Source of the DNA: Armatimonadota bacterium
Lineage (GTDB): Bacteria > Sysuimicrobiota > Sysuimicrobiia > Sysuimicrobiales > Sysuimicrobiaceae
Length of the DNA: 64,000 bases
Direction: 5' to 3'
Assembly: GCA_025059775.1 (NCBI GenBank)
Contig: JANXCW010000003.1
Span: forward strand, 80,284-144,283
Positions within the stretch are counted from its first letter, which is position 1. Every line of letters starts with the position of its first letter. Of the stretch, positions 10,754 to 29,159 are shown piece by piece. A program made the position numbers and the translations under genes. A model generated the notes under the pieces. It saw only the letters and a program-made list of their open reading frames with translations, searched no databases and had not been told where the DNA came from.

Positions 10754-11879
10754 ATGACGTATGCTACCCTGGACGAACTGCGGGCCCAGGTAGGTGAGGA
10801 CCTGGCGCGACTCCGGGAGATCAGGGGGCACCTTTGACCTGGATCGCATCCGGCGCCGCATCCAGGAGCTGGAGGAGGCAGCTGCCCGCCCCGAGGTGTG
10901 GTCGGATCCGGAGCGGGCCCGGGAGGTAGGCCGGGAGCTGGGGCGCCTCCGCGCGCAGCTGGTGGCCTTCGAGGCGCTGGAACGGGGGCTCCTGGACCTG
11001 GAGGAGCTGCTGATCCGGGGGCCGGAGGATCCTGAGGAGCTCGGGCTTTTATGGGAGGAGGCCCAGACCCTACACGCCCGGCTGGAGCGGCTGGAGATCG
11101 AGACCCTGCTCTCCGGTGAGCACGATCCCTCCAACGCCATCCTCTCCATCCACGCGGGCGCGGGAGGGACGGACTCCCAGGACTGGGCGGAGATGCTCCT
11201 CCGGATGTACCTGCGGTGGGCTGTCTCCAAGGGGTACGAGGCAGAGGTGGTGGACCTCTCCTTGGGCGAGGAGGCGGGGATTAAGAGCGCCACGGTGATG
11301 GTGCGGGGGCCGTATGCCTACGGGTACCTGAAGGCGGAACGGGGGACCCATCGCCTGGTGCGCATCTCGCCCTTTGACGCGGCCCACCGGCGTCACACCT
11401 CCTTCGCCCTGGTGGAGGTTCTCCCAGAGGTGGAGCCCGTGACGGTGGACATTCGGCCGGAGGATTTGCGGATAGAGACCTTCCGGTCCCGGGGGGCCGG
11501 CGGGCAGAACGTGAACAAGGTGGAGACCGCGGTCCGCATTACGCACCTGCCCACGGGGATCGTGGTGCAGTGTCAGAACGAGCGCAGCCAGCACGCCAAC
11601 CGGGAGACCGCCCTTCGCCTCCTCGCCGCCCGCCTATACGAGCACTACCGACGGGAGCAGGAGAGGAAATTGCAGCAGCTGCGGGGGGAACACCGCGATG
11701 CCTCCTGGGGGAACCAGATCCGTTCATACGTCCTCCATCCATATACCCTCGTGAAGGACCACCGGACGGGCGTGGAGACGGGGAACGTGCAGGCGGTGCT
11801 CGAGGGCGAGCTGGATCCCTTCATCTACGCCTACCTGCGGGCTCAGGCGGCCACAGACCGGGTTCGGGCAAGAGGATAG
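10754..11879 (+). CDS. prfB: Peptide chain release factor 2, expressed via programmed +1 ribosomal frameshift
   Basis: Frame 0 runs from ATG 10754 ([27 protein letters not shown]) into an in-frame UGA at 10835-10837 within AGGGGGCAC-CUU-UGA-C. The +1 frame from GAC 10836 continues [14 protein letters not shown]... through SPF and GGQ ([23 protein letters not shown]) to TAG 11877-11879. Confidence 0.9.
10821..10838 (+). promoter_or_regulatory. RF2 autoregulatory +1 frameshift site (internal SD-like AGGGGG, then CUU UGA C)
   Basis: Canonical arrangement. The SD-like AGGGGG sits 3 nt before the CUU slippery codon, followed by UGA and C. Confidence 0.85.
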
Positions 11880-11881
11880 GG

Positions 11882-13900
11882 GTGCGGCTTCTTCCCCCCT
11901 TGATCCTCCTGGGTCTTTTCGCCTCCCTCGCGGTAGTCTGGGAGCGCCACGGGGTGGAAGCTCCCTACCGCACCGTGGAGCTCGTCCTCGACAGCGAGGG
12001 CTGGCGGCTCGTGGCCAGGCGGGAGGGCCTGGAGGAGGAGGGGTTCTGGCGGACGCTGCGGGAGGCGGGAGCCACCAGCGTGGCGGTGTACGAGCAGACC
12101 CTGCGGCGCCTGGAGGATGCGGGGTTGGTGGCGGTCCTCGATGGCCCGGAACTGCTGGCGCAGGCGCGGACCGGCCGCCTCTCTGCGGCTCTCTCCGCCC
12201 TGACGCGTCGGCCGGACCTCCTCCGGTCCGTATACGTACTGCCACTTCGACCCGACGTGGCCACCCTGGTGGAGCAGGGCTTTCGGAACGCCCTGGGAGC
12301 CCACCGGATCCGCCTCGTGCTCCGGAATCCCCTCGTGTACGAGCTCCTCGGGTGGCGCAAGGATCTGGAGGAGGTCGGCCTCGGGTTCCTTCCCTGGGAG
12401 GTCCGGCGATGGGAGCGGCGGGGGTTCTGGGTGGTCCTGCGGCCCCGGAACGTGCGGACCCTGGATGCGGAACGCCTGCGGGAACGGGTCCGGGCATACG
12501 GAACGCTGGGACATGGTCTCACCCTGATCTTCGAGGGGGTGGAGGTTCTCGGGTACGAACACCTGATCCCTCAGGCGGCCGCGGTCCTCCGGGAGATCGG
12601 CGCGGTCTACGGACGGGTGGAGGTCCTCACCGCGGCGCGCCGGATGCGGGGAGAGCAGAGCCTGGCGGTCCGGATGATGCCTCGGGTGGTGCGGGTGTTC
12701 AGCATCGGACAGGACGAACTAGATCGCATGAACCCTCCGGCGGCCCGGGAGCGGTTCCTGCGGGCGGCCCGGGAGCGCAACCTCCGGATCCTCTACATTC
12801 GGCCGTTCCAGTCTGTGCCCGGAGGCGTGGATCCCGTGGCGTACAACCTCCACTACCTCCGATCCCTCGTCGCCGACCTGCAGACCGCCGGTTTCCAGCG
12901 CGGACGGGCGGCTCCGCTTCCGATGCTGCGGCTTCCGCGCCCCGTGCTGTACGCCGCGGGGTTAGGGGCCGTAGCGGCGGGTGTGCTCTCGCTCGTCCTC
13001 CTCGTCGGGAGGACTTGCTCTCCCCTCGGAGCGGTGGTCCTGGTGGGCGCGGGATGGGTTGGACTTTTGGGGCTGGGTATGGTCTCCGAGCTGTGGGCGC
13101 GCAAGCTCACGGCCCTCCTGAGTGCCGTGGTCATCCCCCCCCTCGCGATCCACGCAGGTCTACCCCGGGGCGGACCGCGGGCGGTCTCCGGAGGTCGGGT
13201 GCTGCTGGAGGCCGTGGGCCGGCTGTGGCTTATCTCCCTGGGATCCACCGCGGGGGGATTCCTGGTGGCCGCGCTGCTCACGGACTGGCCCTTCCTGCTG
13301 GCCTTCGAGGTCTTCTTCGGGGTGAAGGCGGCCACCGTCCTCCCCCTCGTCCTGATCCTGCTGTTGGAGCTCTCGGAGCCGACAACCGCCGACCCTCCGT
13401 GGCGGAGGCTGTGGCGGGCCATGGACCGGCCCCTCTCCCTTCGAACAGCCCTGATCCTGGTGGTGCTGGGATCCGCGGGCTTGCTGTTGGTGCTGCGTAC
13501 CGGCAACGTGAGCCTGCCCATGCTCGATCTGGAGGAGCGACTGCGTACGGCGTTGGAGACGGCCATGGGAGCCCGGCCCCGCACGAAAGAGTACCTGGTG
13601 GGCCACCCCGCCCTGCTGCTCGGCGTTGCCGCGTATCTCGTGGGTATGCGGCGATGGGGCCTCCCCCTGGTCGTGGTGGGAGCCGTCGGGCAGGCGGGAC
13701 TCGTGAACTCCTTCGCCCACCTCCACACCCCCATCCTCTATACCCTCTGGCGCACCGCCAACGGTCTGCTGCTGGGAACCGTGATCGGGGTGGCGGTCTG
13801 GGTAGTGGCGTGGTTCCTCCTCCGGCCCCGGGGGCTCCTTCCCGCCCCCGGGCATCCTGTGCTGGTGCAGGCCGCGATTCGCGAACAGCTCCCTCCCTAG
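11882..13900 (+). CDS. Large membrane protein (N-terminal anchor, extracytoplasmic domain, C-terminal polytopic domain); resembles the DUF5693-type proteins that precede csaB
   Basis: GTG 11882, 3 nt after the prfB stop. N-terminal hydrophobic anchor (LLPPLILLGLFASLAVVW). The last ~250 aa hold multiple predicted TM helices. Family assignment is tentative, by gene neighbourhood (immediately upstream of csaB). Confidence 0.55.
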   Translation: MRLLPPLILLGLFASLAVVWERHGVEAPYRTVELVLDSEGWRLVARREGLEEEGFWRTLREAGATSVAVYEQTLRRLEDAGLVAVLDGPELLAQARTGRLSAALSALTRRPDLLRSVYVLPLRPDVATLVEQGFRNALGAHRIRLVLRNPLVYELLGWRKDLEEVGLGFLPWEVRRWERRGFWVVLRPRNVRTLDAERLRERVRAYGTLGHGLTLIFEGVEVLGYEHLIPQAAAVLREIGAVYGRVEVLTAARRMRGEQSLAVRMMPRVVRVFSIGQDELDRMNPPAARERFLRAARERNLRILYIRPFQSVPGGVDPVAYNLHYLRSLVADLQTAGFQRGRAAPLPMLRLPRPVLYAAGLGAVAAGVLSLVLLVGRTCSPLGAVVLVGAGWVGLLGLGMVSELWARKLTALLSAVVIPPLAIHAGLPRGGPRAVSGGRVLLEAVGRLWLISLGSTAGGFLVAALLTDWPFLLAFEVFFGVKAATVLPLVLILLLELSEPTTADPPWRRLWRAMDRPLSLRTALILVVLGSAGLLLVLRTGNVSLPMLDLEERLRTALETAMGARPRTKEYLVGHPALLLGVAAYLVGMRRWGLPLVVVGAVGQAGLVNSFAHLHTPILYTLWRTANGLLLGTVIGVAVWVVAWFLLRPRGLLPAPGHPVLVQAAIREQLPP

Positions 13901-13903
13901 CCC

Positions 13904-14947
13904 ATGCGGGCGGTGGTCCTGGGCTACTATGGCTTCGGCAACGTAGGAGACGAGGCGGTGCTGTGGGCCATGCGCCAGCACCTGCGGGAGGTTCTTCCGA
14001 ACCTCCGGCTCTGTGTGCTCTCCGCGGACCCTGAGGCCACATCCGCCCTGCACGGCACGGAGAGCGTCCTGCGCACGGATCCCAAAGGGGTGCGGCGGGC
14101 CATGCGGGAAAGTGTGGTGGTCCTGAGCGGCGGAGGTAGCCTCTTCCAGGACGCCACCAGCTGGCGGAGCCCACTCTACTACGCCTGGCTGCACGAGCTC
14201 GCCGCCAGGGAACGCAGGCCCCTGGTGGTGTACGCGCAGGGCATAGGCCCCCTCCGGCGGCGCCTCAGTCGGTGGACGACCCGACGGGCCATGGGACACG
14301 CCGCGCGCCTCACGGTGCGGGATGCCCCAAGCGCCCGACTCCTCAGACACCTCGGCGTGCGGGACCCCGTCGAGGTAGTCTGCGATCCCGTCCTCGGGTT
14401 GCCGACTCCCGGGCCCGGAGAGGGCTCCCCGTGGATCGGCGTCTCCCTCCGTCCCTGGCCGGGGGTATCCCTAGATCCCATCGTCGAGGCCATCGCGAGG
14501 CTTCAGGACGAGGTCGGAATTCCGGTACGGGTGGTGTGCTTCCACGAAAGCATGGATCGGGGGCTGAACGAAGTCCTGGCCCGCCGGGTGCGGGCCGAGG
14601 ACCTCGTGGTGGTGCGCTCGCCCCAGGAGGCTTGGCGGGTCTTCTGCGGCGCGGGTCTCGTGGTGGCCATGCGGCTCCATGCCCTCCTCTTCGCGGCCCT
14701 GGCAGGGGCCGTTCCCGTGGGTATTGCGTACGATCCGAAGGTTCAGGCCCTGGCGGACCAGCTCCCCGGCTTGGAGGTGGTTTCCCTGGAGGAACTCTCC
14801 CGCGGCCTGTGGGGGGCCGTGGAGCGCGCGTGGCGGGATCGGGAGTCCAGAGTGGAGCAGCTGCGGAAGGCGGTTCCCCCGCTTTCAGCCCGGGCCCGGC
14901 TCCCCGCCCGGGCCGTCGCCGCCTTGTTGGGGGGTGTACCCCTCTAG
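13904..14947 (+). CDS. csaB: Polysaccharide pyruvyl transferase CsaB
   Basis: MRAVVLGYYGFGNVGDEAVLWAMRQHL..SGGGSLFQDATSW.. typical of CsaB/PS_pyruv_trans. Starts 4 nt after the upstream stop. Confidence 0.85.
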   Translation: MRAVVLGYYGFGNVGDEAVLWAMRQHLREVLPNLRLCVLSADPEATSALHGTESVLRTDPKGVRRAMRESVVVLSGGGSLFQDATSWRSPLYYAWLHELAARERRPLVVYAQGIGPLRRRLSRWTTRRAMGHAARLTVRDAPSARLLRHLGVRDPVEVVCDPVLGLPTPGPGEGSPWIGVSLRPWPGVSLDPIVEAIARLQDEVGIPVRVVCFHESMDRGLNEVLARRVRAEDLVVVRSPQEAWRVFCGAGLVVAMRLHALLFAALAGAVPVGIAYDPKVQALADQLPGLEVVSLEELSRGLWGAVERAWRDRESRVEQLRKAVPPLSARARLPARAVAALLGGVPL

Positions 14948-14953
14948 GGACGG

Positions 14954-15724
14954 ATGGGCGGACGGGTGTGGGTCCTGGGAGTTCCCTTCGACCCTGTAGA
15001 TCTGGAGGGTGCGGTGGCGGCGTGCATCCGCATGGTGGCCGACGGGCGGCCGCACCTGGCGGTCACCGCCAATCCCGAGGCGGTGGTCCGGGCCCAGGAC
15101 GATCCGGAGTTTGCGGAGATACTCCGGAGGGCGGATCTCGTGGTCGCGGATGGAATCGGCGTGGTGTGGGCGTCCCGGAGGCTGGGGCAGCCGCTGCCCA
15201 TGCGGGTCCCCGGCATCGAGCTCATGGAGGCCCTCTGCGCCCACGCGGCGCGCGCAGGGCTGAGGGTGTTCCTGCTGGGCGGAGCCGAGGGAGTGGCAGA
15301 GCAGGCAGCCCGCACCCTCCTCCGAAATCACCCCGGCCTGCGGATTGCGGGCACCCACCACGGGTACTTCCCGGACGACGGACCGGTGGTCGAGCGGATC
15401 GCGGAGAGCCGCGCGGACCTGCTGTTCGTGGGGATGGGGATGCCCCGGCAGGAGAAGTGGTTGAGCCGCCACCTTCCCGAGCTCGGGGTACGGCTGGCCA
15501 TGGGGGTGGGCGGGAGCCTGGATGTGCTCGCGGGCCGGGTCCGCCGGGCACCGGGCTTTGTACAGCGGGTGCACCTGGAGTGGCTGTACCGCCTCCTGCA
15601 GGAACCCCGCCGGTGGCGCCGCCAACTCGCCCTGGTGCGTTTCGTGTGGCTGGTCCTCCGGAGGGGAGAGGAGAAGCCAGGGGGAAGGCGGAATACAAAC
15701 ACGCGACAGGACACGCGGGGGTGA
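14954..15724 (+). CDS. WecB/TagA/CpsF-family glycosyltransferase (N-acetylmannosaminyltransferase-like)
   Basis: VLGVPFDPVDLEGAV...ANPEAVV...DLVVADGIGVVWASRRLG..PRQEKWL... matches the TagA/WecG family. Confidence 0.85.
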   Translation: MGGRVWVLGVPFDPVDLEGAVAACIRMVADGRPHLAVTANPEAVVRAQDDPEFAEILRRADLVVADGIGVVWASRRLGQPLPMRVPGIELMEALCAHAARAGLRVFLLGGAEGVAEQAARTLLRNHPGLRIAGTHHGYFPDDGPVVERIAESRADLLFVGMGMPRQEKWLSRHLPELGVRLAMGVGGSLDVLAGRVRRAPGFVQRVHLEWLYRLLQEPRRWRRQLALVRFVWLVLRRGEEKPGGRRNTNTRQDTRG

Positions 15725-15728
15725 GTCG

Positions 15729-16031
15729 GTGCCGGAGGTGCTGAAGGTCTCTGCGGAGTCAAACCCGAAGGCGGTGGCCGGAGCCATCGCGGCGATCCTG
15801 CGGGAGCACGGATCCGTGGAGCTGCAGGCGATCGGAGCCGGTGCCGTGAACCAAGCGGTGAAGGCCATCGCCATCGCACGGGGGTTCGTGGCGCCCAACG
15901 GCCTGGAGATCGTGGTGGTCCCCGCCTTCACCAAGGTCCTCATCAACGGCGAGGAGCGGACCGCCATCCGGTTCCTGGTGGAGGCGCGGCGGTCGGGCCG
16001 GGCGAGCGCACCCCCGTCGGACCGCGCCTAA
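15729..16031 (+). CDS. spoVS: Stage V sporulation protein S homologue
   Basis: GTG 15729 after GGGGGTGAG, 4 nt after the tagA-like stop. VLKVSAESNPKAVAGAIAAILREHGSVELQAIGAGAVNQAVKAIAIARGFVAPNGLEIVVVPAFTKVLINGEERTAIRFLVE is a near-textbook SpoVS sequence. Confidence 0.85.
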   Translation: MPEVLKVSAESNPKAVAGAIAAILREHGSVELQAIGAGAVNQAVKAIAIARGFVAPNGLEIVVVPAFTKVLINGEERTAIRFLVEARRSGRASAPPSDRA

Positions 16032-16061
16032 GAGCCGCCACGTGGTAGGATCCGGTTGGGG

Positions 16062-17003
16062 ATGGACTACGGACCCCTGAAGGTCTTCTCCGGAACCGCG
16101 AACCCTGGTCTGGCACAGGAGATCGTGGACTACCTGGAGATCCCCATGGGCCGGGTCTACATCCGACGGTTCGCGGATGGGGAGATCTACGTGCGGTACG
16201 AGGAGAACGCCCGGGGGGTGGACGCCTTCGTGGTCCAGCCCCTGTGCCATCCCGTGAACGAGAACCTGATGGAGCTCCTCATCATGCTCGACGCCCTCCG
16301 CCGGGCCAGCGCGGGGCGGATCACCGCGGTGATCCCGTACTACGCGTACGCGCGGCAGGACCGGAAGTCCGCACCCCGGGAGCCGATCTCCGCGCGCCTG
16401 GTGGCCGACCTGCTCACGGTGGCGGGGATCCATCGGGTGCTCACCATGGACCTGGATGCGGACCAGATCGAGGGGTTCTTTACCGTCCCCGTGGACCACC
16501 TGCGGGCCCTCCCCCTGTTCGCGGAGGCCCTCCGGCAGCGTCAGATCTCGGACGGGGTGGTGGTGGCGCCGGACGACGGCGCAGTGAAGCAGGCCAAGCG
16601 CCTCGCGGATCGTCTCGGCCTGCCACTTGCGGTGGTGTTCCAGCGCAGGGCCGAGGGCGGCAAGACGCCGGTGCAGCTGGTGGGCGAGGTGGAGGGGCGC
16701 ACGCCCATCCTCATCGACCGGATGATCGCCACGGCGGAGACGGTGGAGGTGGCGGTAGAGGCGCTGCTGCGGGCAGGGGCGCGGCCGGAGGTGTACCTGT
16801 GTGCCACGCATCCCATCCTGGCTCCGGGAGCCCTGGAACGGCTCGCCCGCCCGGAGATCCGGGAACTCCTGGTGACGAACACCATTCCGGTGGCCGAGGA
16901 GAAGCGGCGAGCCAACATCACAGTGCTTTCCGCAGCACCGTTGCTGGCGGAGGCCATCCGCCGCATCCACGCGGATCAGTCCGTGAGCGCCCTGTTCACG
17001 TAA
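16062..17003 (+). CDS. prs: Ribose-phosphate pyrophosphokinase
   Basis: LKVFSGTANPGLAQEIVDYLEIPMG...DGEIYVRYEENARGVDAFVVQ..VNENLMELLIMLDALRRASAGRITAVIPYYAYARQDRK.. is the canonical PRPP synthetase. A TTG at 16056 is also possible. Confidence 0.95.
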   Translation: MDYGPLKVFSGTANPGLAQEIVDYLEIPMGRVYIRRFADGEIYVRYEENARGVDAFVVQPLCHPVNENLMELLIMLDALRRASAGRITAVIPYYAYARQDRKSAPREPISARLVADLLTVAGIHRVLTMDLDADQIEGFFTVPVDHLRALPLFAEALRQRQISDGVVVAPDDGAVKQAKRLADRLGLPLAVVFQRRAEGGKTPVQLVGEVEGRTPILIDRMIATAETVEVAVEALLRAGARPEVYLCATHPILAPGALERLARPEIRELLVTNTIPVAEEKRRANITVLSAAPLLAEAIRRIHADQSVSALFT

Positions 17004-17027
17004 TCCGGTTAGCCCCGGGAGGAGGAC

Positions 17028-18545
17028 ATGAGCGTTCGGACGCGGTACGCGCCGAGCCCCACGGGGTTCCTGCACGTGGGCGGAGCGTGGAACGCCTTCT
17101 TCAACTGGCTGTTCAGCCGCCACCACGGAGGTGTCTTCGTACTCCGCATCGAGGACACGGACCGCTCCCGCTCCACCGTGGAATACGAGCAGGCCATCTG
17201 TGAGGATCTGCGGTGGCTGGGGATCGACTGGGACGAGGGTCCGGACGTGGGCGGACCCTACGGTCCTTACCGCCAGACGGAGCGGAGGGAGCTCTACGCC
17301 CGCTACGCGGAGGAGTTCCTGCGCCGGGGAGTCGCCTACCCGTGTTACTGCACCCCCGAGGAACTCCTGGCGGAACGACGGCGGGCGGAGGCAGAGCGCC
17401 GACCTCCTCGATACTCCGGCCGGTGCCGGAACCTGGACGATGCGGAACGTGCGAGGCTGCAGGCGGAGGGCCGGCGGCCGGCGCTGCGGTTTCACGTGGA
17501 GCAGTTCCGAAATCCCTCCCTCGGAGATCCCGGGTGGCTGCAGGAACGGGAAGGGCGGAGGGCGGTGGTGGTCCAGGACCTCATCCGAGGGGAGGTCGTG
17601 TTTGACCTCGCGGAGCTCGATGACTTCCTCATCGTGCGTTCGGACGGTACCCCGCTGTACAACTTCGCGAACGTGGTGGACGACCACACCATGGCCATCA
17701 CCCACGTCCTGCGGGGCGTGGAGCACCTGGGGAACACCCCCCGTCAGCTTCTCATGTACCACGCCCTGGGCTGGACTCCCCCCGCCTTCGCCCACCTCCC
17801 CGTCCTCCTGGGGCCGGACCGGAAGAAGCTCAGCAAGCGACACGGGGATACCGCCCTCCGGGAGTACCGGGACGAGCTCTTCCTGCCGGAGGCCCTGCGG
17901 AACTTCTTCGCCCTCCTGGCCTGGTATCCGGAGGACGGCCGGGAGCTCTTCCCCACAGAGGAGCTCATCGAGCGGTTCGACATCCGGGAGCTCAAGGGTG
18001 CGAGCCCCGTGTTCGACCGGCAGAAGCTCGTGTGGATGAACGGAGAGTACCTGCGTCAGTTGCGGCAATCTGACCCTGATCGGCTCGTGGACCTAGCGAC
18101 CGCCTACCTGGTCCGACGGGGACTGCTGGAAGAGCCGGTGACGGAGGCGGAGCGAAGCCTGGTGCGGCGGGTGATCGGGATCCTGGGTGACCGGCTGAAG
18201 GTGGGATCCGATCTAGTGCTCTACGCGGATTTCTTCTTCCTGGACCGACCCCGCTACGACCCTCAGGCGGTGGCCAGGTATCTCGCGGGCGCGTCCGAGC
18301 TCCTGGCCGAGGTGCGGGCGACCCTGGAGCCCGTGGACCCCTTCCACGCGGACCGCATCGAGCAGGCCCTCCGGGCGTTCGCAGAGGCTTCCGGGCTCGG
18401 GATGCGGGCGGTGGTGCATCCGGTGCGGGTAGCCCTGACCGGACGGACGGTGGGCCCCGGGCTGTTCGAGCTCATGGAGGTACTGGGAAAGGAGCGGGTG
18501 CTGCGACGGCTGGAAGAGGCCCGAGCCCTGGCAGGGGTGGCGTAG
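17028..18545 (+). CDS. gltX: Glutamate--tRNA ligase
   Basis: RYAPSPTGFLHVGGAWNAFFNW (HIGH region) and KLSKRHG (KMSKS). Zinc-binding CYC..C motif region. GGGAGGAGGA RBS. Confidence 0.95.
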   Translation: MSVRTRYAPSPTGFLHVGGAWNAFFNWLFSRHHGGVFVLRIEDTDRSRSTVEYEQAICEDLRWLGIDWDEGPDVGGPYGPYRQTERRELYARYAEEFLRRGVAYPCYCTPEELLAERRRAEAERRPPRYSGRCRNLDDAERARLQAEGRRPALRFHVEQFRNPSLGDPGWLQEREGRRAVVVQDLIRGEVVFDLAELDDFLIVRSDGTPLYNFANVVDDHTMAITHVLRGVEHLGNTPRQLLMYHALGWTPPAFAHLPVLLGPDRKKLSKRHGDTALREYRDELFLPEALRNFFALLAWYPEDGRELFPTEELIERFDIRELKGASPVFDRQKLVWMNGEYLRQLRQSDPDRLVDLATAYLVRRGLLEEPVTEAERSLVRRVIGILGDRLKVGSDLVLYADFFFLDRPRYDPQAVARYLAGASELLAEVRATLEPVDPFHADRIEQALRAFAEASGLGMRAVVHPVRVALTGRTVGPGLFELMEVLGKERVLRRLEEARALAGVA

Positions 18546-18548
18546 CGG

Positions 18549-18594
18549 GCCGGAGGCGTTTGACAGAGGAGGCCGGAGGCGTTTGACAGAGGAG
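18549..18594. repeat. Tandem 23-bp direct repeat x2 (GCCGGAGGCGTTTGACAGAGGAG), each copy containing TTGACA
   Basis: Two adjacent identical copies seen directly, right after the gltX stop and upstream of the tRNA genes. Confidence 0.8.
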
Positions 18595-18612
18595 GCGGAG
18601 TTCGGGAATAAT
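18583..18612 (+). promoter_or_regulatory. Sigma-A-type promoter for the tRNA-Gln/tRNA-Glu genes (-35 TTGACA, 18-nt spacer, -10 AATAAT)
   Basis: TTGACA at 18583-18588 (a second copy at 18560-18565 in the upstream repeat unit), AATAAT at 18607-18612, tRNA-Gln starts at 18626. Confidence 0.5.
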
Positions 18613-18625
18613 GATGGGCGGCCGG

Positions 18626-18699
18626 TGGGGGATCGTCTAACGGTAGGACAACGGGCTCTGGACCCGTTAGTGGAGGTTCGAATCCTCCTCCCCCAGCCA
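18626..18699 (+). tRNA. tRNA-Gln (anticodon CUG), CCA encoded
   Basis: Acceptor stem TGGGGGA/TCCCCCA, anticodon loop CTCTGGA (CTG), T-arm GGAGGTTCGAATCCTCC, discriminator G, then genomic CCA. Confidence 0.9.
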
Positions 18700-18714
18700 G
18701 CGGCAGCGGTGGGT

Positions 18715-18790
18715 GGCCCCATCGTCTAGAGGCCTAGGATACCGCCCTCTCAAGGCGGAGACGGGGATTCGAATTCCCCTGGGGCCACCA
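18715..18790 (+). tRNA. tRNA-Glu (anticodon CUC), CCA encoded
   Basis: Acceptor stem GGCCCCA/TGGGGCC, anticodon stem CCGCC/GGCGG with loop CTCTCAA (CTC), T-loop ATTCGAAT, discriminator A, then CCA. Confidence 0.9.
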
Positions 18791-18828: not shown

Positions 18829-20076
18829 GTGGACAAAGCCGACGTGGTCGTGGTGGGTGGGGGTGCCATAGGCCTGTGCTGCGCGTGCGCGTTGGCGCGC
18901 GATGGGCTGCGGGTGCTCCTCCTGGAACGCAAACACCCCGGGGCAGGCGCCTCCTGGGGGAATGCAGGGTTGGTGGCGCCCTCGCACAGCCTCCCCCTCG
19001 CGGAGCCCGGTGTCGTGCGGCGCGGCCTGCGGTGGATGCTGGACCCCGAAAGCCCCCTGTACGTGCCTCTGCGGCCGGACAGAAACCTGTGGACCTGGCT
19101 ATGGCGCTTCCTAAGGTCCGGTACGGACGCGCACGTACGCCTTGCCGTCCCCCTGCTGGTGCGGTTGCAGCGCCGGAGCCTGGAACTGTACGAGCAGCTG
19201 GCGGCGGAGGGACTGGACTTCGGATGGCACCGGGCCGGCTCGCTTTCTGTCTTCCTGGACGAGCGGGAGTACCGGGCCTTCCTGCACGAGGTCAATCGGC
19301 TCCGCCGAGAGGGGATGGTCGCGGAGGTGCTGGACGGCGAGGCCGCGCGGGAGCGGGAGCCCTTGCTGCGACCTGAGGTGGCCGGTGCGGTGTACTTTCC
19401 CCACGACGCCCACCTGGATCCCGCGGCCCTGGTGCAGGCCCTGGCGCAGCGCGCCCTGTGCCTCGGCGTGGAGGTGCGGGCGGGTTGCCCCGCGCGCCTT
19501 CAGCGGCGCGGCAGGATGGTGGCGGTGCAATGGAACGGGCAGGAGATCCGGCCGGCGGCGGTGGTGGTGGCCGCGGGCGCGTGGAGCGGGCCATTGTTGT
19601 GCCCTGTGGGGGTGCGCCTCCCTGTCCTCCCCGCCAAGGGATACAGCGTGACCCTGGCCGGTGGGTCCCTACCGGGAAGCCCCCTGATGCTCAGCGAGGC
19701 CCGGGTGGCTGTGACTCCGCTTTGGAGTCGTGCGGAGGGGCCCCGGGTGCGACTGGCGGGCACCCTGGAGTTGGGGATAGGGGAGGACGCCGCCAACCCC
19801 CGGCGCGTGAGGGCCATCCGCAGGGCTACCTCCCGGTACCTGCGGCTGGAGCCGGAGGGAGGGGTGGTTTGGTCCGGGCTCCGGCCGTGCACGCCGGATG
19901 GCCTCCCCGTAGTGGGTAGGCCGCGGGGTCTGGACAACCTGGTGGTAGCAACCGGCCACGGGACCCTGGGCATCTCCCTGGCCCCGGTGACCGGGGAGCT
20001 GGTAGCGCAGCTCGTGGCGGGGGAAGAACCCGAAGACCTGGTGCCCCTGAGCCCTGACCGGTTCAGCCCGCTCTGA
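18829..20076 (+). CDS. FAD-dependent oxidoreductase, DAO family (D-amino-acid dehydrogenase-like)
   Basis: GTG 18829. N-terminal dinucleotide-binding fold VVVVGGGAIGLCCACALARDGLRVLLLER. C-terminal GHG..G DAO-type motif (VVATGHGTLGISLAP). Confidence 0.8.
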   Translation: MDKADVVVVGGGAIGLCCACALARDGLRVLLLERKHPGAGASWGNAGLVAPSHSLPLAEPGVVRRGLRWMLDPESPLYVPLRPDRNLWTWLWRFLRSGTDAHVRLAVPLLVRLQRRSLELYEQLAAEGLDFGWHRAGSLSVFLDEREYRAFLHEVNRLRREGMVAEVLDGEAAREREPLLRPEVAGAVYFPHDAHLDPAALVQALAQRALCLGVEVRAGCPARLQRRGRMVAVQWNGQEIRPAAVVVAAGAWSGPLLCPVGVRLPVLPAKGYSVTLAGGSLPGSPLMLSEARVAVTPLWSRAEGPRVRLAGTLELGIGEDAANPRRVRAIRRATSRYLRLEPEGGVVWSGLRPCTPDGLPVVGRPRGLDNLVVATGHGTLGISLAPVTGELVAQLVAGEEPEDLVPLSPDRFSPL

Positions 20077-27574: not shown

Positions 27575-27650
27575 TTGACAAAATTCCAGGGGGTTTGCTG
27601 TACTGAAGCCGATTGTTCTAAATATCGGATAATGTCCGGATATCCGAACA
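27575..27650 (+). promoter_or_regulatory. AT-rich promoter/operator region: TTGACA -35-like box plus clustered CGGATA / TATCCG repeats
   Basis: TTGACA at 27575-27580, followed by ATCGGATAATGTCCGGATATCCGAAC containing the palindrome CGGATATCCG and a direct CGGATA repeat. Lies between the IclR stop and the ALDH start. Confidence 0.35.
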
Positions 27651-27698: not shown

Positions 27699-29159
27699 AT
27701 GCGGGGCGTGGAGGTCCAGGAGGTTCTGAACTGCGTGGGTGGGGTGTGGAAGCGGCCCCAGGGGCAGGAGGTCCTGCCCGTGTACAACCCCGCCACCGGG
27801 GAGGTCATCGCGCGGGTGGTGACGAGCAGCCCGGAGGACGTGGACCGGGCGGCCCTGGCCGCGGCCCGCGCGGGTGCGGAGTGGCGCCGAACTCCGCCCA
27901 CGGAGCGGGTGCAATACCTGTTCCGGTTGAAACACCTGCTGGAGGAGAACCTGGAGGACCTCGCCCGCACCATCACGGAGGAATGCGGGAAAACGTATGC
28001 GGAGGCCGTAGGGGAGCTGCGGCGGGGCATCGAGAACGTGGAGGTGGCCTGCGGGATCCCCAGCCTCATGCAGGGGTACAACAACGAGGACATCGCCCGG
28101 GGTATCGACGAGTACATGTTTCGGCAGCCCGTGGGCGTGGTGGCCGCCATCACCCCGTTCAACTTCCCTGGGATGATCCCCCTGTGGTTTTTGCCGTACG
28201 CCATCGCGTGCGGCAACACGTTTATCGTGAAACCGTCTGAGAAGACGCCGCTGACGATGCAGAAGCTCATGCGCCTGGTGGAGCAGACAGGGCTTCCGCC
28301 GGGCGTGGTGAACGTGGTGAACGGGGCGAAGGAGACGGTAGACGCCCTCCTGGATCACCCGCTGATCCGGGCCATCAGCTTCGTGGGCTCCACCCCCGTG
28401 GCGAAGTATGTGTACGCACGGGCCGCCGCGGGGGGCAAGCGCGCCCAGTGCCAGGGTGGAGCGAAGAACCCCGTGATCGTGCTCCCGGACGCGGATCTGG
28501 AGTGGGTACCCCGGGCCGTGGCCGATTCCGCCTTCGGGTGCGCGGGGCAGCGGTGCCTGGCGAGCTCGCTGGCGGTGGTGGTGGGCGAAGCGCAGGGGCG
28601 GTTTCGGGAGGCCATCGCAGACCTGGCCGCCTCCCGCCGGGTGGGGTACGGGCTGGATCCGGGAGTGGAGATGGGGCCGGTGATCCGGCGGGAGAGCAAG
28701 GAGCGCATCGAGGGACTCATCGGCAAAGGCGCGGAGGAAGGAGCCCGGATCCTGGTGGACGGACGGGGCGCTCGGATCCCTGGATATGAGGGCGGCTTCT
28801 TCGTGCGGCCCACGGTGCTGGAGGACGTCCCGCCGGAAGGTCTAGTTGCCCGCACGGAGATCTTCGGACCGGTGCTGGGCCTGATCTATGTGCGGGACCT
28901 GGACGAGGCCATTCAGCTGGTGAACCGGGGCCAGTACGGGAACATGGCCTGCCTGTTCACCCGCAGCGGGGCCGCGGCCCGGAAGTTCCGCTATGAGGCG
29001 CAGGTGGGCAACATCGGGATCAACGTGGGGGTGGCCCAGCCCATCGCCTTCTACCCCTTCGGGGGCATGAAGGAGAGCTTCTTCGGCGACCTCCACGGCC
29101 AGGGGCGGGACGCGGTGGAGTTCTACACGGAGAAGAAGATCGTGGTGGAGCGGTGGTAG
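27699..29159 (+). CDS. CoA-acylating methylmalonate-semialdehyde dehydrogenase-like aldehyde dehydrogenase
   Basis: GGGAGGA RBS. ALDH catalytic region ([12 protein letters not shown]..., [11 protein letters not shown] with catalytic Cys) and an MmsA-like overall pattern. Confidence 0.85.

Follow-up and report, generated by a model that had tools for sequence, protein, structure and literature searches.

A gltX-tRNA-Gln(CUG)-tRNA-Glu(CUC) locus with a near-consensus promoter and a tandemly duplicated -35 region in a Sysuimicrobium-like bacterium

The locus described here consists of gltX, the gene for glutamyl-tRNA synthetase (GluRS), followed on the same strand by a promoter and by the genes for tRNA-Gln(CUG) and tRNA-Glu(CUC). 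It lies in a 64-kb stretch of DNA, referred to as the window and considered at its full length, which is assigned to a Sysuimicrobium-like bacterium of the candidate phylum CSP1-3/Sysuimicrobiota. CSP1-3 is the candidate phylum that was named Sysuimicrobiota and placed within the Terrabacteria (PMC11604079). From the 5′ to the 3′ end, the features of the locus are:

17028-18545, + strand: gltX, bacterial-type glutamate--tRNA ligase of 505 amino acids (open reading frame (ORF) call, TIGR00464 and PDB matches)
18549-18571, + strand: copy 1 of a 23-bp tandem duplication, with the distal TTGACA (18560-18565); extra copy with respect to all relatives
18572-18594, + strand: copy 2 of the duplication, with the functional-looking -35 TTGACA (18583-18588), from the repeat search and alignment
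18595-18600, + strand: GCGGAG, a partial third repeat (GGCGGAG against the unit start GGCCGGAG; 2.3 copies in Tandem Repeats Finder, TRF)
18607-18612, + strand: -10 hexamer AATAAT, 18 nt past the proximal -35, kept in relatives as (T/C/A)ATAAT
18626-18699, + strand: tRNA-Gln(CUG) (ARAGORN; Rfam RF00005, 64.7 bits)
18715-18790, + strand: tRNA-Glu(CUC) (ARAGORN; Rfam RF00005, 60 bits)

Both tRNA genes form cloverleaves in ARAGORN and score above the RF00005 threshold of 29 bits. They are the sole tRNAs in the window, they are separated by 15 nt, and each encodes its own CCA (...CCCCCAG-CCA in tRNA-Gln and ...GGGGCCA-CCA in tRNA-Glu). The linkage of gltX to the two tRNAs, together with the encoded CCA, had been pointed out in an original prediction made from the sequence; both are present at the coordinates given above, and the linkage is conserved. 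In this G+C-rich genome the two tRNAs read ∼93% of the Gln codons and ∼87% of the Glu codons, the counts in 37 ORFs of the window being 373 CAG versus 28 CAA, and 811 GAG versus 126 GAA.

The identity of the synthetase is clear. The protein scores 484 bits against the TIGR00464 (gltX_bact) model, whose cut-off is 290, and it belongs to this family; its matches to solved GluRS structures in the PDB have E values down to 5e-112, the closest homologues being those of Thermotoga maritima, Thermus thermophilus, and Mycobacterium tuberculosis. The class I motifs are HVGG (residues 16-19) for HIGH and KLSKR for KMSKS, and the gene ends with a TAG stop codon at 18543-18545.

Between this stop codon and tRNA-Gln stands the promoter: TTGACA (18583-18588), a spacer of 18 nt, and AATAAT (18607-18612), on the + strand. 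With 11 of the 12 positions of the sigma-70 consensus, it is the top match in the window on both strands, and it is the sole promoter-like match between 16 and 20 kb, where 0.1 would be expected. The TTGACA hexamer is itself infrequent, with only five occurrences on the two strands of the window. Between the -10 hexamer and tRNA-Gln lies the G+C-rich discriminator GATGGGCGGCCGG, a trait also of stable-RNA promoters; the predicted transcription start is near 18619-18620, so that the 5′ leader would measure ∼6 nt. The window has only one other sigma-70-like match of at least 10/12, TTGACA-18-TGTACT at 27575-27604, ∼95 nt upstream of the gene for methylmalonate-semialdehyde dehydrogenase (27699-29159).

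What does the same place look like in other genomes? Relatives were found by scanning species-representative genomes with the window GluRS protein. The closest genome is the metagenome-assembled genome (MAG) of Candidatus Sysuimicrobium calidum, termed L001, whose GluRS is 93% identical in amino acids and which is colinear with the window over 7.7 kb (window 11037-18701) at 88.8% nucleotide identity. The other relatives, with GluRS identities of 57-77%, are MAGs and metagenomes from hot springs, soil, and aquifers, and the best of those from metagenomes reach only 77%. The Sysuimicrobiota comparison set is composed of 28 loci with a same-strand tRNA-Gln(CUG) downstream of gltX, and all of them have the order gltX-promoter-tRNA-Gln(CUG). 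In 22 of the 28 loci, the region just upstream of tRNA-Gln has an exact TTGACA and, after 17-18 nt, (T/C/A)ATAAT or CACAAT, while the remaining six keep TATAAT and have a weaker -35. Relatives with as little as 57% GluRS identity still have a near-consensus -35/-10 pair at this place. A sigma-70/sigma-A promoter is expected to have a spacing of 16-18 nt and a position conserved in relatives, and the promoter of the window has both. As far as sequence comparison can tell, it is real in the evolutionary sense; TTGACA-18-AATAAT is present as originally predicted, and it is kept in position among the relatives.

The promoter is packed tightly against the coding region. In the closest group of the window the -35 starts ∼15 nt past the gltX stop codon, and in L002 (3109-3116), L003 (7534-7541), L007, and L081 the stop codon TGA is inside the -35 hexamer (GTT TGA CA). 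With the -35 overlapping the stop codon or following it so closely, a terminator could not fit between gltX and the tRNAs, and no such site was predicted there.

As for the second tRNA, tRNA-Glu(CUC) lies 14-25 nt after tRNA-Gln in 10 of the 28 loci (L002, L003, L007, L081-L085, L106, and L109). About 11 more distant loci with enough flank have no tRNA, and the arrangement is absent from the loci retrieved from Chloroflexota, Bacteroidota, Bacillota, and others. It reappears in Actinomycetota, where the sample comprised five loci: L050 and L161-L164, the latter four being from Mycobacteriales/Frankiaceae and fetched via actinobacterial GluRS homologues. These loci have an Rv2993c-like gene upstream of gltX, and all five display gltX-tRNA-Gln(CUG)-tRNA-Glu(CUC); the gap from gltX to the tRNAs is ∼30 nt in four of them and ∼640 nt, with one small ORF in between, in L164. 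The Rv2993c-Rv2992c(gltS)-glnU-gluU region of M. tuberculosis has the same arrangement. With this order in five of five actinobacterial loci, the arrangement is, on comparative grounds, not a new one; it is old and conserved within the phylum. A literature search for a gltX-tRNA-Gln-tRNA-Glu operon found nothing relevant.

The closest genome has its own peculiarity downstream of gltX. L001 is colinear with the window until 2 nt past tRNA-Gln and then diverges fully (L001 7650-11251 versus window 18700 onward): tRNA-Glu is missing there, and the next 3.6 kb are unrelated to the window and contain a fragment of a P-type ATPase. An element integrated at the L001 tRNA-Gln was considered as the explanation for the missing tRNA-Glu and rejected, as the downstream ORFs comprise no integrase and only the P-type ATPase fragment. 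A rearrangement at the tRNA or a mis-join in the MAG is possible.

Another side observation concerns the protein. The GluRS of the window has a lineage-specific insertion of 17-22 amino acids, FRNPSLGDPGWLQEREGRR, at residues ∼157-180 (window 17490-17570), which is common to the window, L001, L109, L002, L003, L007, L081, and L084 and missing from the T. thermophilus enzyme and from the relatives with 57-62% identity. The loci with this insertion are those having both tRNAs directly after gltX, except for L001, which breaks off after tRNA-Gln.

The next question is which tRNAs the synthetase charges. The original prediction had suggested a non-discriminating GluRS that feeds GatCAB, and the tRNA features and the phylogenetic context make this indirect pathway the most likely one: a single GluRS would probably charge both tRNAs, with GatCAB converting Glu-tRNA-Gln. 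The features in question are the following. The tRNA-Gln has a U1-A72 pair, a 4-bp D-stem (G10-C25, U11-A24, C12-G23, and U13·G22; GUCU/GGAC), a 7-nt D-loop, and a short variable region without nucleotide 47. The tRNA-Glu has G1-C72, a 9-nt D-loop, and a 4-bp D-stem that shares its 5′ strand, GUCU, with tRNA-Gln. Bacterial GatCAB accepts tRNA-Gln by its U1-A72 pair and the lack of an extra D-loop base, and rejects tRNA-Glu, which has G1-C72 and extra D-loop base(s) (PMC2811023); the two tRNAs of the window carry these discrimination elements. In addition, a 4-bp D-stem is a feature linked to recognition by GluRS (PMC2777447), and tRNA-Gln has this tRNA-Glu-type stem, as do the actinobacterial tRNA-Gln genes, which share its short variable region and lack nucleotide 47 too. 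Because U1-A72 also occurs in bacteria that use GlnRS (PMC3927822), the GatCAB-type elements are permissive and not decisive. Overall, the tRNA features may be taken as weak positive evidence that fits the indirect pathway. The phylogenetic context is that most non-proteobacterial phyla have one GluRS and gatCAB and no GlnRS, and that terrabacterial phyla are mostly without GlnRS (PMC3927822).

The alternative that survives best, although unlikely, is that a discriminating GluRS charges tRNA-Glu alone, that a GlnRS is encoded elsewhere in the genome, and that the adjacency of tRNA-Gln is an inherited order with no bearing on substrate range. It draws on residue Arg389, which aligns with Arg358, the C36-reading residue of the discriminating T. 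thermophilus enzyme (PDB 1J09_A, the alignment reference). Arginine is found here in 15 of 15 aligned relatives, actinobacterial and chloroflexal enzymes included. However, Arg is likewise the residue of the M. tuberculosis GluRS (PDB 2JA2; ...VQT-R-IVV...), and this organism uses GatCAB and is not known to have a GlnRS. In the enzymes of Bacillus subtilis and Thermosynechococcus elongatus the position is Gln or Gly. Moreover, the effect of Arg358 is reported to be phylum-specific and did not transfer to the GluRS1 of Helicobacter pylori (PMC3927822). For these two reasons, the Arg in M. tuberculosis and the phylum specificity, the position is not diagnostic; the Arg358 equivalent, which the original prediction had proposed to inspect, turned out to be in the "discriminating" state, and the residue was dropped as a criterion.

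The same alternative is favored by the acceptor-stem and G10 elements of tRNA-Gln, which are conserved in GlnRS-containing genomes (PMC3927822), and by the lack of gatCAB within the window. The latter has a limited weight: neither GlnRS nor GatA, GatB, or GatC was found among the ∼fifty window ORFs scanned, a result that is uninformative for a 64-kb sample, and no K01886, K02433, K02434, glnS, or gatA/B entries appear in the supplementary data of the Sysuimicrobiota paper. Against this alternative stand also the lack of GlnRS in most terrabacterial phyla mentioned above and the D-stem of tRNA-Gln, which has 4 bp as in Actinomycetota, unlike that of Escherichia coli tRNA-Gln, which has 3 bp. 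In conclusion, a non-discriminating GluRS is plausible but unproven. It would not be an enzyme of the GluRS2 type: these tRNA-Gln-specific paralogues have the HφGN variant of the HIGH motif (PMC3927822), and the window enzyme has HVGG. Among the relatives, HVGN takes the place of HVGG in the GluRS of L002, L003, L007, L081, and L084.

The most conspicuous detail of the locus is the repeat that surrounds the -35. The 23-mer GCCGGAGGCGTTTGACAGAGGAG is present as a perfect tandem pair (0 mismatches) and has no further copy in the window, while 0 of 100 shuffles produced any match. TRF gives it a score of 99 (2.3 copies, one indel, 3% indels), the next tandem repeat in the 64 kb scoring 56. The two TTGACA boxes, at 18560 and 18583, are spaced 23 bp. 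The perfect tandem duplication described in the original prediction is confirmed. Its comparison with related genomes, which had also been proposed, gave a uniform outcome: aligned with L001, L106, and L109, the window alone carries a clean insertion of 23 nt, two TTGACA boxes occur in 0 of the 28 related loci, and all relatives, L001 with its 88.8% identity among them, have one copy of the 23-mer. The two copies of the window are identical to each other, and each is one base off the L001 unit (GAGGAG versus GAGAAG); therefore, the duplication is younger than the split from L001.

How did the second copy arise? The flanking GGCGGAG motif is also present in the single-copy L001, and the short direct homology between GGCCGGAG and GGCGGAG was likely the substrate of a slipped-strand duplication. 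Identical copies, a single copy in sister genomes, and flanking microhomology are the marks of a recent, lineage-specific tandem duplication, and all of them are found here; the duplication is best read as such a slipped-strand event. Its consequences are probably small. Through the proximal copy, the -35, spacer, and -10 of the ancestor are retained, with the position and spacing of the single-copy L001, while the distal TTGACA is 41 nt away from AATAAT. At 16-19 nt from the distal box no -10 partner brings the two hexamers together to 10/12, and, by eye, no hexamer in this range has A at position 2 and T at position 6; 17 nt past the distal box there is only the second TTGACA. Three points, namely the intact original -35, spacer, and -10, the absence of the extra copy in relatives, and the lack of a -10 partner for the distal box, make a neutral or nearly neutral duplication the most likely case.

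It had been proposed, instead, that the duplicated -35 creates alternative promoter phasing or a site for a regulatory protein. In a broader form, the duplicated 23-mer would be functional as a tandem or alternative promoter, as a decoy for sigma or the alpha-CTD, or as a regulator site that tunes the expression of tRNA-Gln and tRNA-Glu (and the 3′ end of gltX). There is something attractive in two perfect TTGACA boxes spaced 23 bp, or roughly two turns of the helix, immediately ahead of the strongest promoter-like site of the window. Yet this explanation is very improbable: the second copy is not conserved, being missing from 28 of 28 related loci, L001 among them; the distal box has no adequate -10 hexamer at 16-19 nt; and the zero divergence of the copies denotes a very recent event, with no sign of selective maintenance. 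Slightly less probable still is an assembly or sequencing artefact on a genome that is in truth single-copy like its relatives, for which one can invoke that L001, the closest of them, has one copy and that only one sequence carries the duplication (the exact-protein look-up of the window GluRS gave no record in other public assemblies, and the exact search of metagenome contigs with the promoter 22-mer AGGCGGAGTTCGGGAATAATGA gave 0 matches), but the junction is clean, in register, and flanked by the homology expected of a slipped-strand duplication, and in assemblies short tandem repeats are usually collapsed and seldom created, the 46 bp involved here being shorter than a read.

All these elements can be combined in a joint reading, which is considered likely: a conserved gltX-tRNA locus with a strong promoter, a GluRS that most likely charges both tRNAs, and a recent, probably neutral duplication. 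Of the original interpretation, the promoter and the linkage of GluRS with tRNA-Gln and tRNA-Glu are retained, and a functional role of the duplicated -35 found no support. In this proposal, a housekeeping sigma factor would recognize TTGACA-18-AATAAT and drive a two-gene operon, tRNA-Gln(CUG)-tRNA-Glu(CUC). This internal promoter would supply most of the tRNA transcription, and read-through from gltX would probably enter the tRNAs as well, with RNase P and other tRNA-processing nucleases releasing them from the read-through transcript. GluRS would then charge both tRNAs, and GatCAB would make Gln-tRNA-Gln from Glu-tRNA-Gln, as suggested by the tRNA features and the phylogenetic context. Lastly, strand slippage between GGCCGGAG and GGCGGAG would have added the second TTGACA 23 bp upstream.

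Several points weigh against this proposal. Arg at the position of Arg358 is the "discriminating" state under the T. thermophilus rule; the U1-A72, G2-C71, G3-C70, and G10 elements of tRNA-Gln also suit GlnRS; and the search for glnS and gatCAB covered this window only. The start site, the co-transcription with gltX, and the strength of the promoter are all inferred from the sequence. As for the duplication, "neutral" is an argument from the absence in relatives and the missing -10 partner, and the duplication rests on a single sequence, as no independent assembly of the strain was found in the collections searched.

Might the coupling of gltX to its tRNA substrates be functional and not merely inherited? 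The idea is conceivable because the promoter abuts or overlaps the gltX stop codon, no terminator intervenes, and the arrangement recurs in two phyla; the probability given to it is, all the same, very small. In such a scheme, the RNase P cut at tRNA-Gln would set the 3′ end of the gltX mRNA, or GluRS would bind a tRNA embedded in its own read-through transcript, leading to autoregulation. If this were true, the 23-bp duplication would shift the balance between read-through and promoter-driven tRNA synthesis.

The locus is flanked by two other genes:

16056-17003, + strand: prs, ribose-phosphate diphosphokinase (NF002320, 382.6 bits; TIGR01251, 355 bits)
18829-20076, + strand: FAD-dependent oxidoreductase (D-amino-acid dehydrogenase/glycine oxidase-like, ThiO-like), 38 nt past tRNA-Glu

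The gap between the end of prs and the start of gltX is 24 nt and contains the ribosome-binding site GGAGGAGG; the two genes are probably co-transcribed. On the other side, there is no terminator-like site between tRNA-Glu and the FAD oxidoreductase gene. The window segment 18791-20835, which holds this gene and that for an ECF-transporter S component, is replaced in L106 and L109 by ∼0.85 kb of unrelated sequence, with the colinearity back at ∼20835 or 21537; among relatives, the sequence 3′ of the tRNA pair is variable.

Two further observations lie outside the locus itself. The prfB gene (release factor 2, with PCRF and RF-1 domains; window 10754-11879) has the classic programmed +1 frameshift, a known feature: its ATG is at 10754, the site CTTTGAC at 10832-10838 contains the in-frame TGA at 10835 and has a Shine-Dalgarno-like AGGGGG just upstream, and the +1 frame runs to 11879. 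At L001 3567-3665, ARAGORN calls a "tRNA-Ala(GGC)" of 99 nt, an atypical length, and both ARAGORN and Rfam are silent in the colinear part of the window; the call is probably a false positive.

Taken by itself, the locus is ordinary and conserved, and it matters little. A synthetase gene linked to its substrate tRNAs is of a known kind, as in Actinomycetota, and is found here in a recently named, uncultivated phylum; the consensus promoter, placed right against the end of the gltX reading frame, is unusually clear, and the duplicated -35 is a strain-level curiosity. The uses of these data lie elsewhere: (i) the gltX-tRNA-Gln(CUG)-tRNA-Glu(CUC) order of Sysuimicrobiota and Actinomycetota is useful as an anchor in annotation and hints mildly at co-regulation of the synthetase and its substrates; (ii) the Arg358 rule alone is unfit for calling a GluRS discriminating or non-discriminating; (iii) the duplicated -35 offers a natural pair of one-copy and two-copy promoter variants, nothing suggesting more than a neutral polymorphism.

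Collectively, the locus invites comparison with some well-known systems. The actinobacterial locus is the nearest: it has the same order, strand, and anticodons, its tRNAs come directly after the gltX stop, and its tRNA-Gln has the same architecture of 4-bp D-stem and U1-A72. The differences are that the gap from gltX to tRNA-Gln measures just ∼30 nt in four of the five loci, where there is no TTGACA box but only a TAnnnT hexamer over the stop codon; that L164 has a small ORF between gltX and the tRNAs; that CCA is apparently not encoded in the tRNAs; and that the GluRS is only ∼41% identical to that of the window. The TAnnnT hexamer of L050 and L161-L163 (TAGAGT, TAGACT, or TAAGGT) shares bases with the gltX stop and lies ∼22-25 nt ahead of tRNA-Gln; it could be a -10-only tRNA promoter, parallel to the arrangement in Sysuimicrobiota.

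With the systems of the indirect pathway, that is, B. subtilis, the transamidosome of T. maritima (PDB 3AKZ/3AL0), and M. tuberculosis, the window shares a bacterial-type GluRS and tRNAs that match the GatCAB rules, whereas the position of Arg358 is Arg in the window and Lys in T. maritima GluRS2. Its promoter resembles the sigma-70 promoters of stable RNAs in the 11/12 consensus, in the G+C-rich stretch from the -10 to the start, and in the short leader (the start being predicted), and differs in having a spacer of 18 nt instead of 17 and no A+T-rich UP element. The duplication has the look of ordinary intergenic slipped-strand duplications, with identical head-to-tail copies, imperfect short homology, and absence in sister genomes; the only difference is that the copy in the window happens to include a -35 hexamer. 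A last comparison is with E. coli, where, as Brun et al. (1990, J Mol Biol) reportedly described, gltX neighbors the valU tRNA operon and the two are read from divergent promoters that lie close together. There too the regulatory region of the GluRS gene abuts the promoter of a tRNA operon, but the tRNAs are those for Val and Lys, which are not substrates of GluRS, and they diverge from the 5′ side of gltX; in the window, the tRNAs are the probable substrates of the enzyme, and they stand on the same strand at the 3′ end of its gene.

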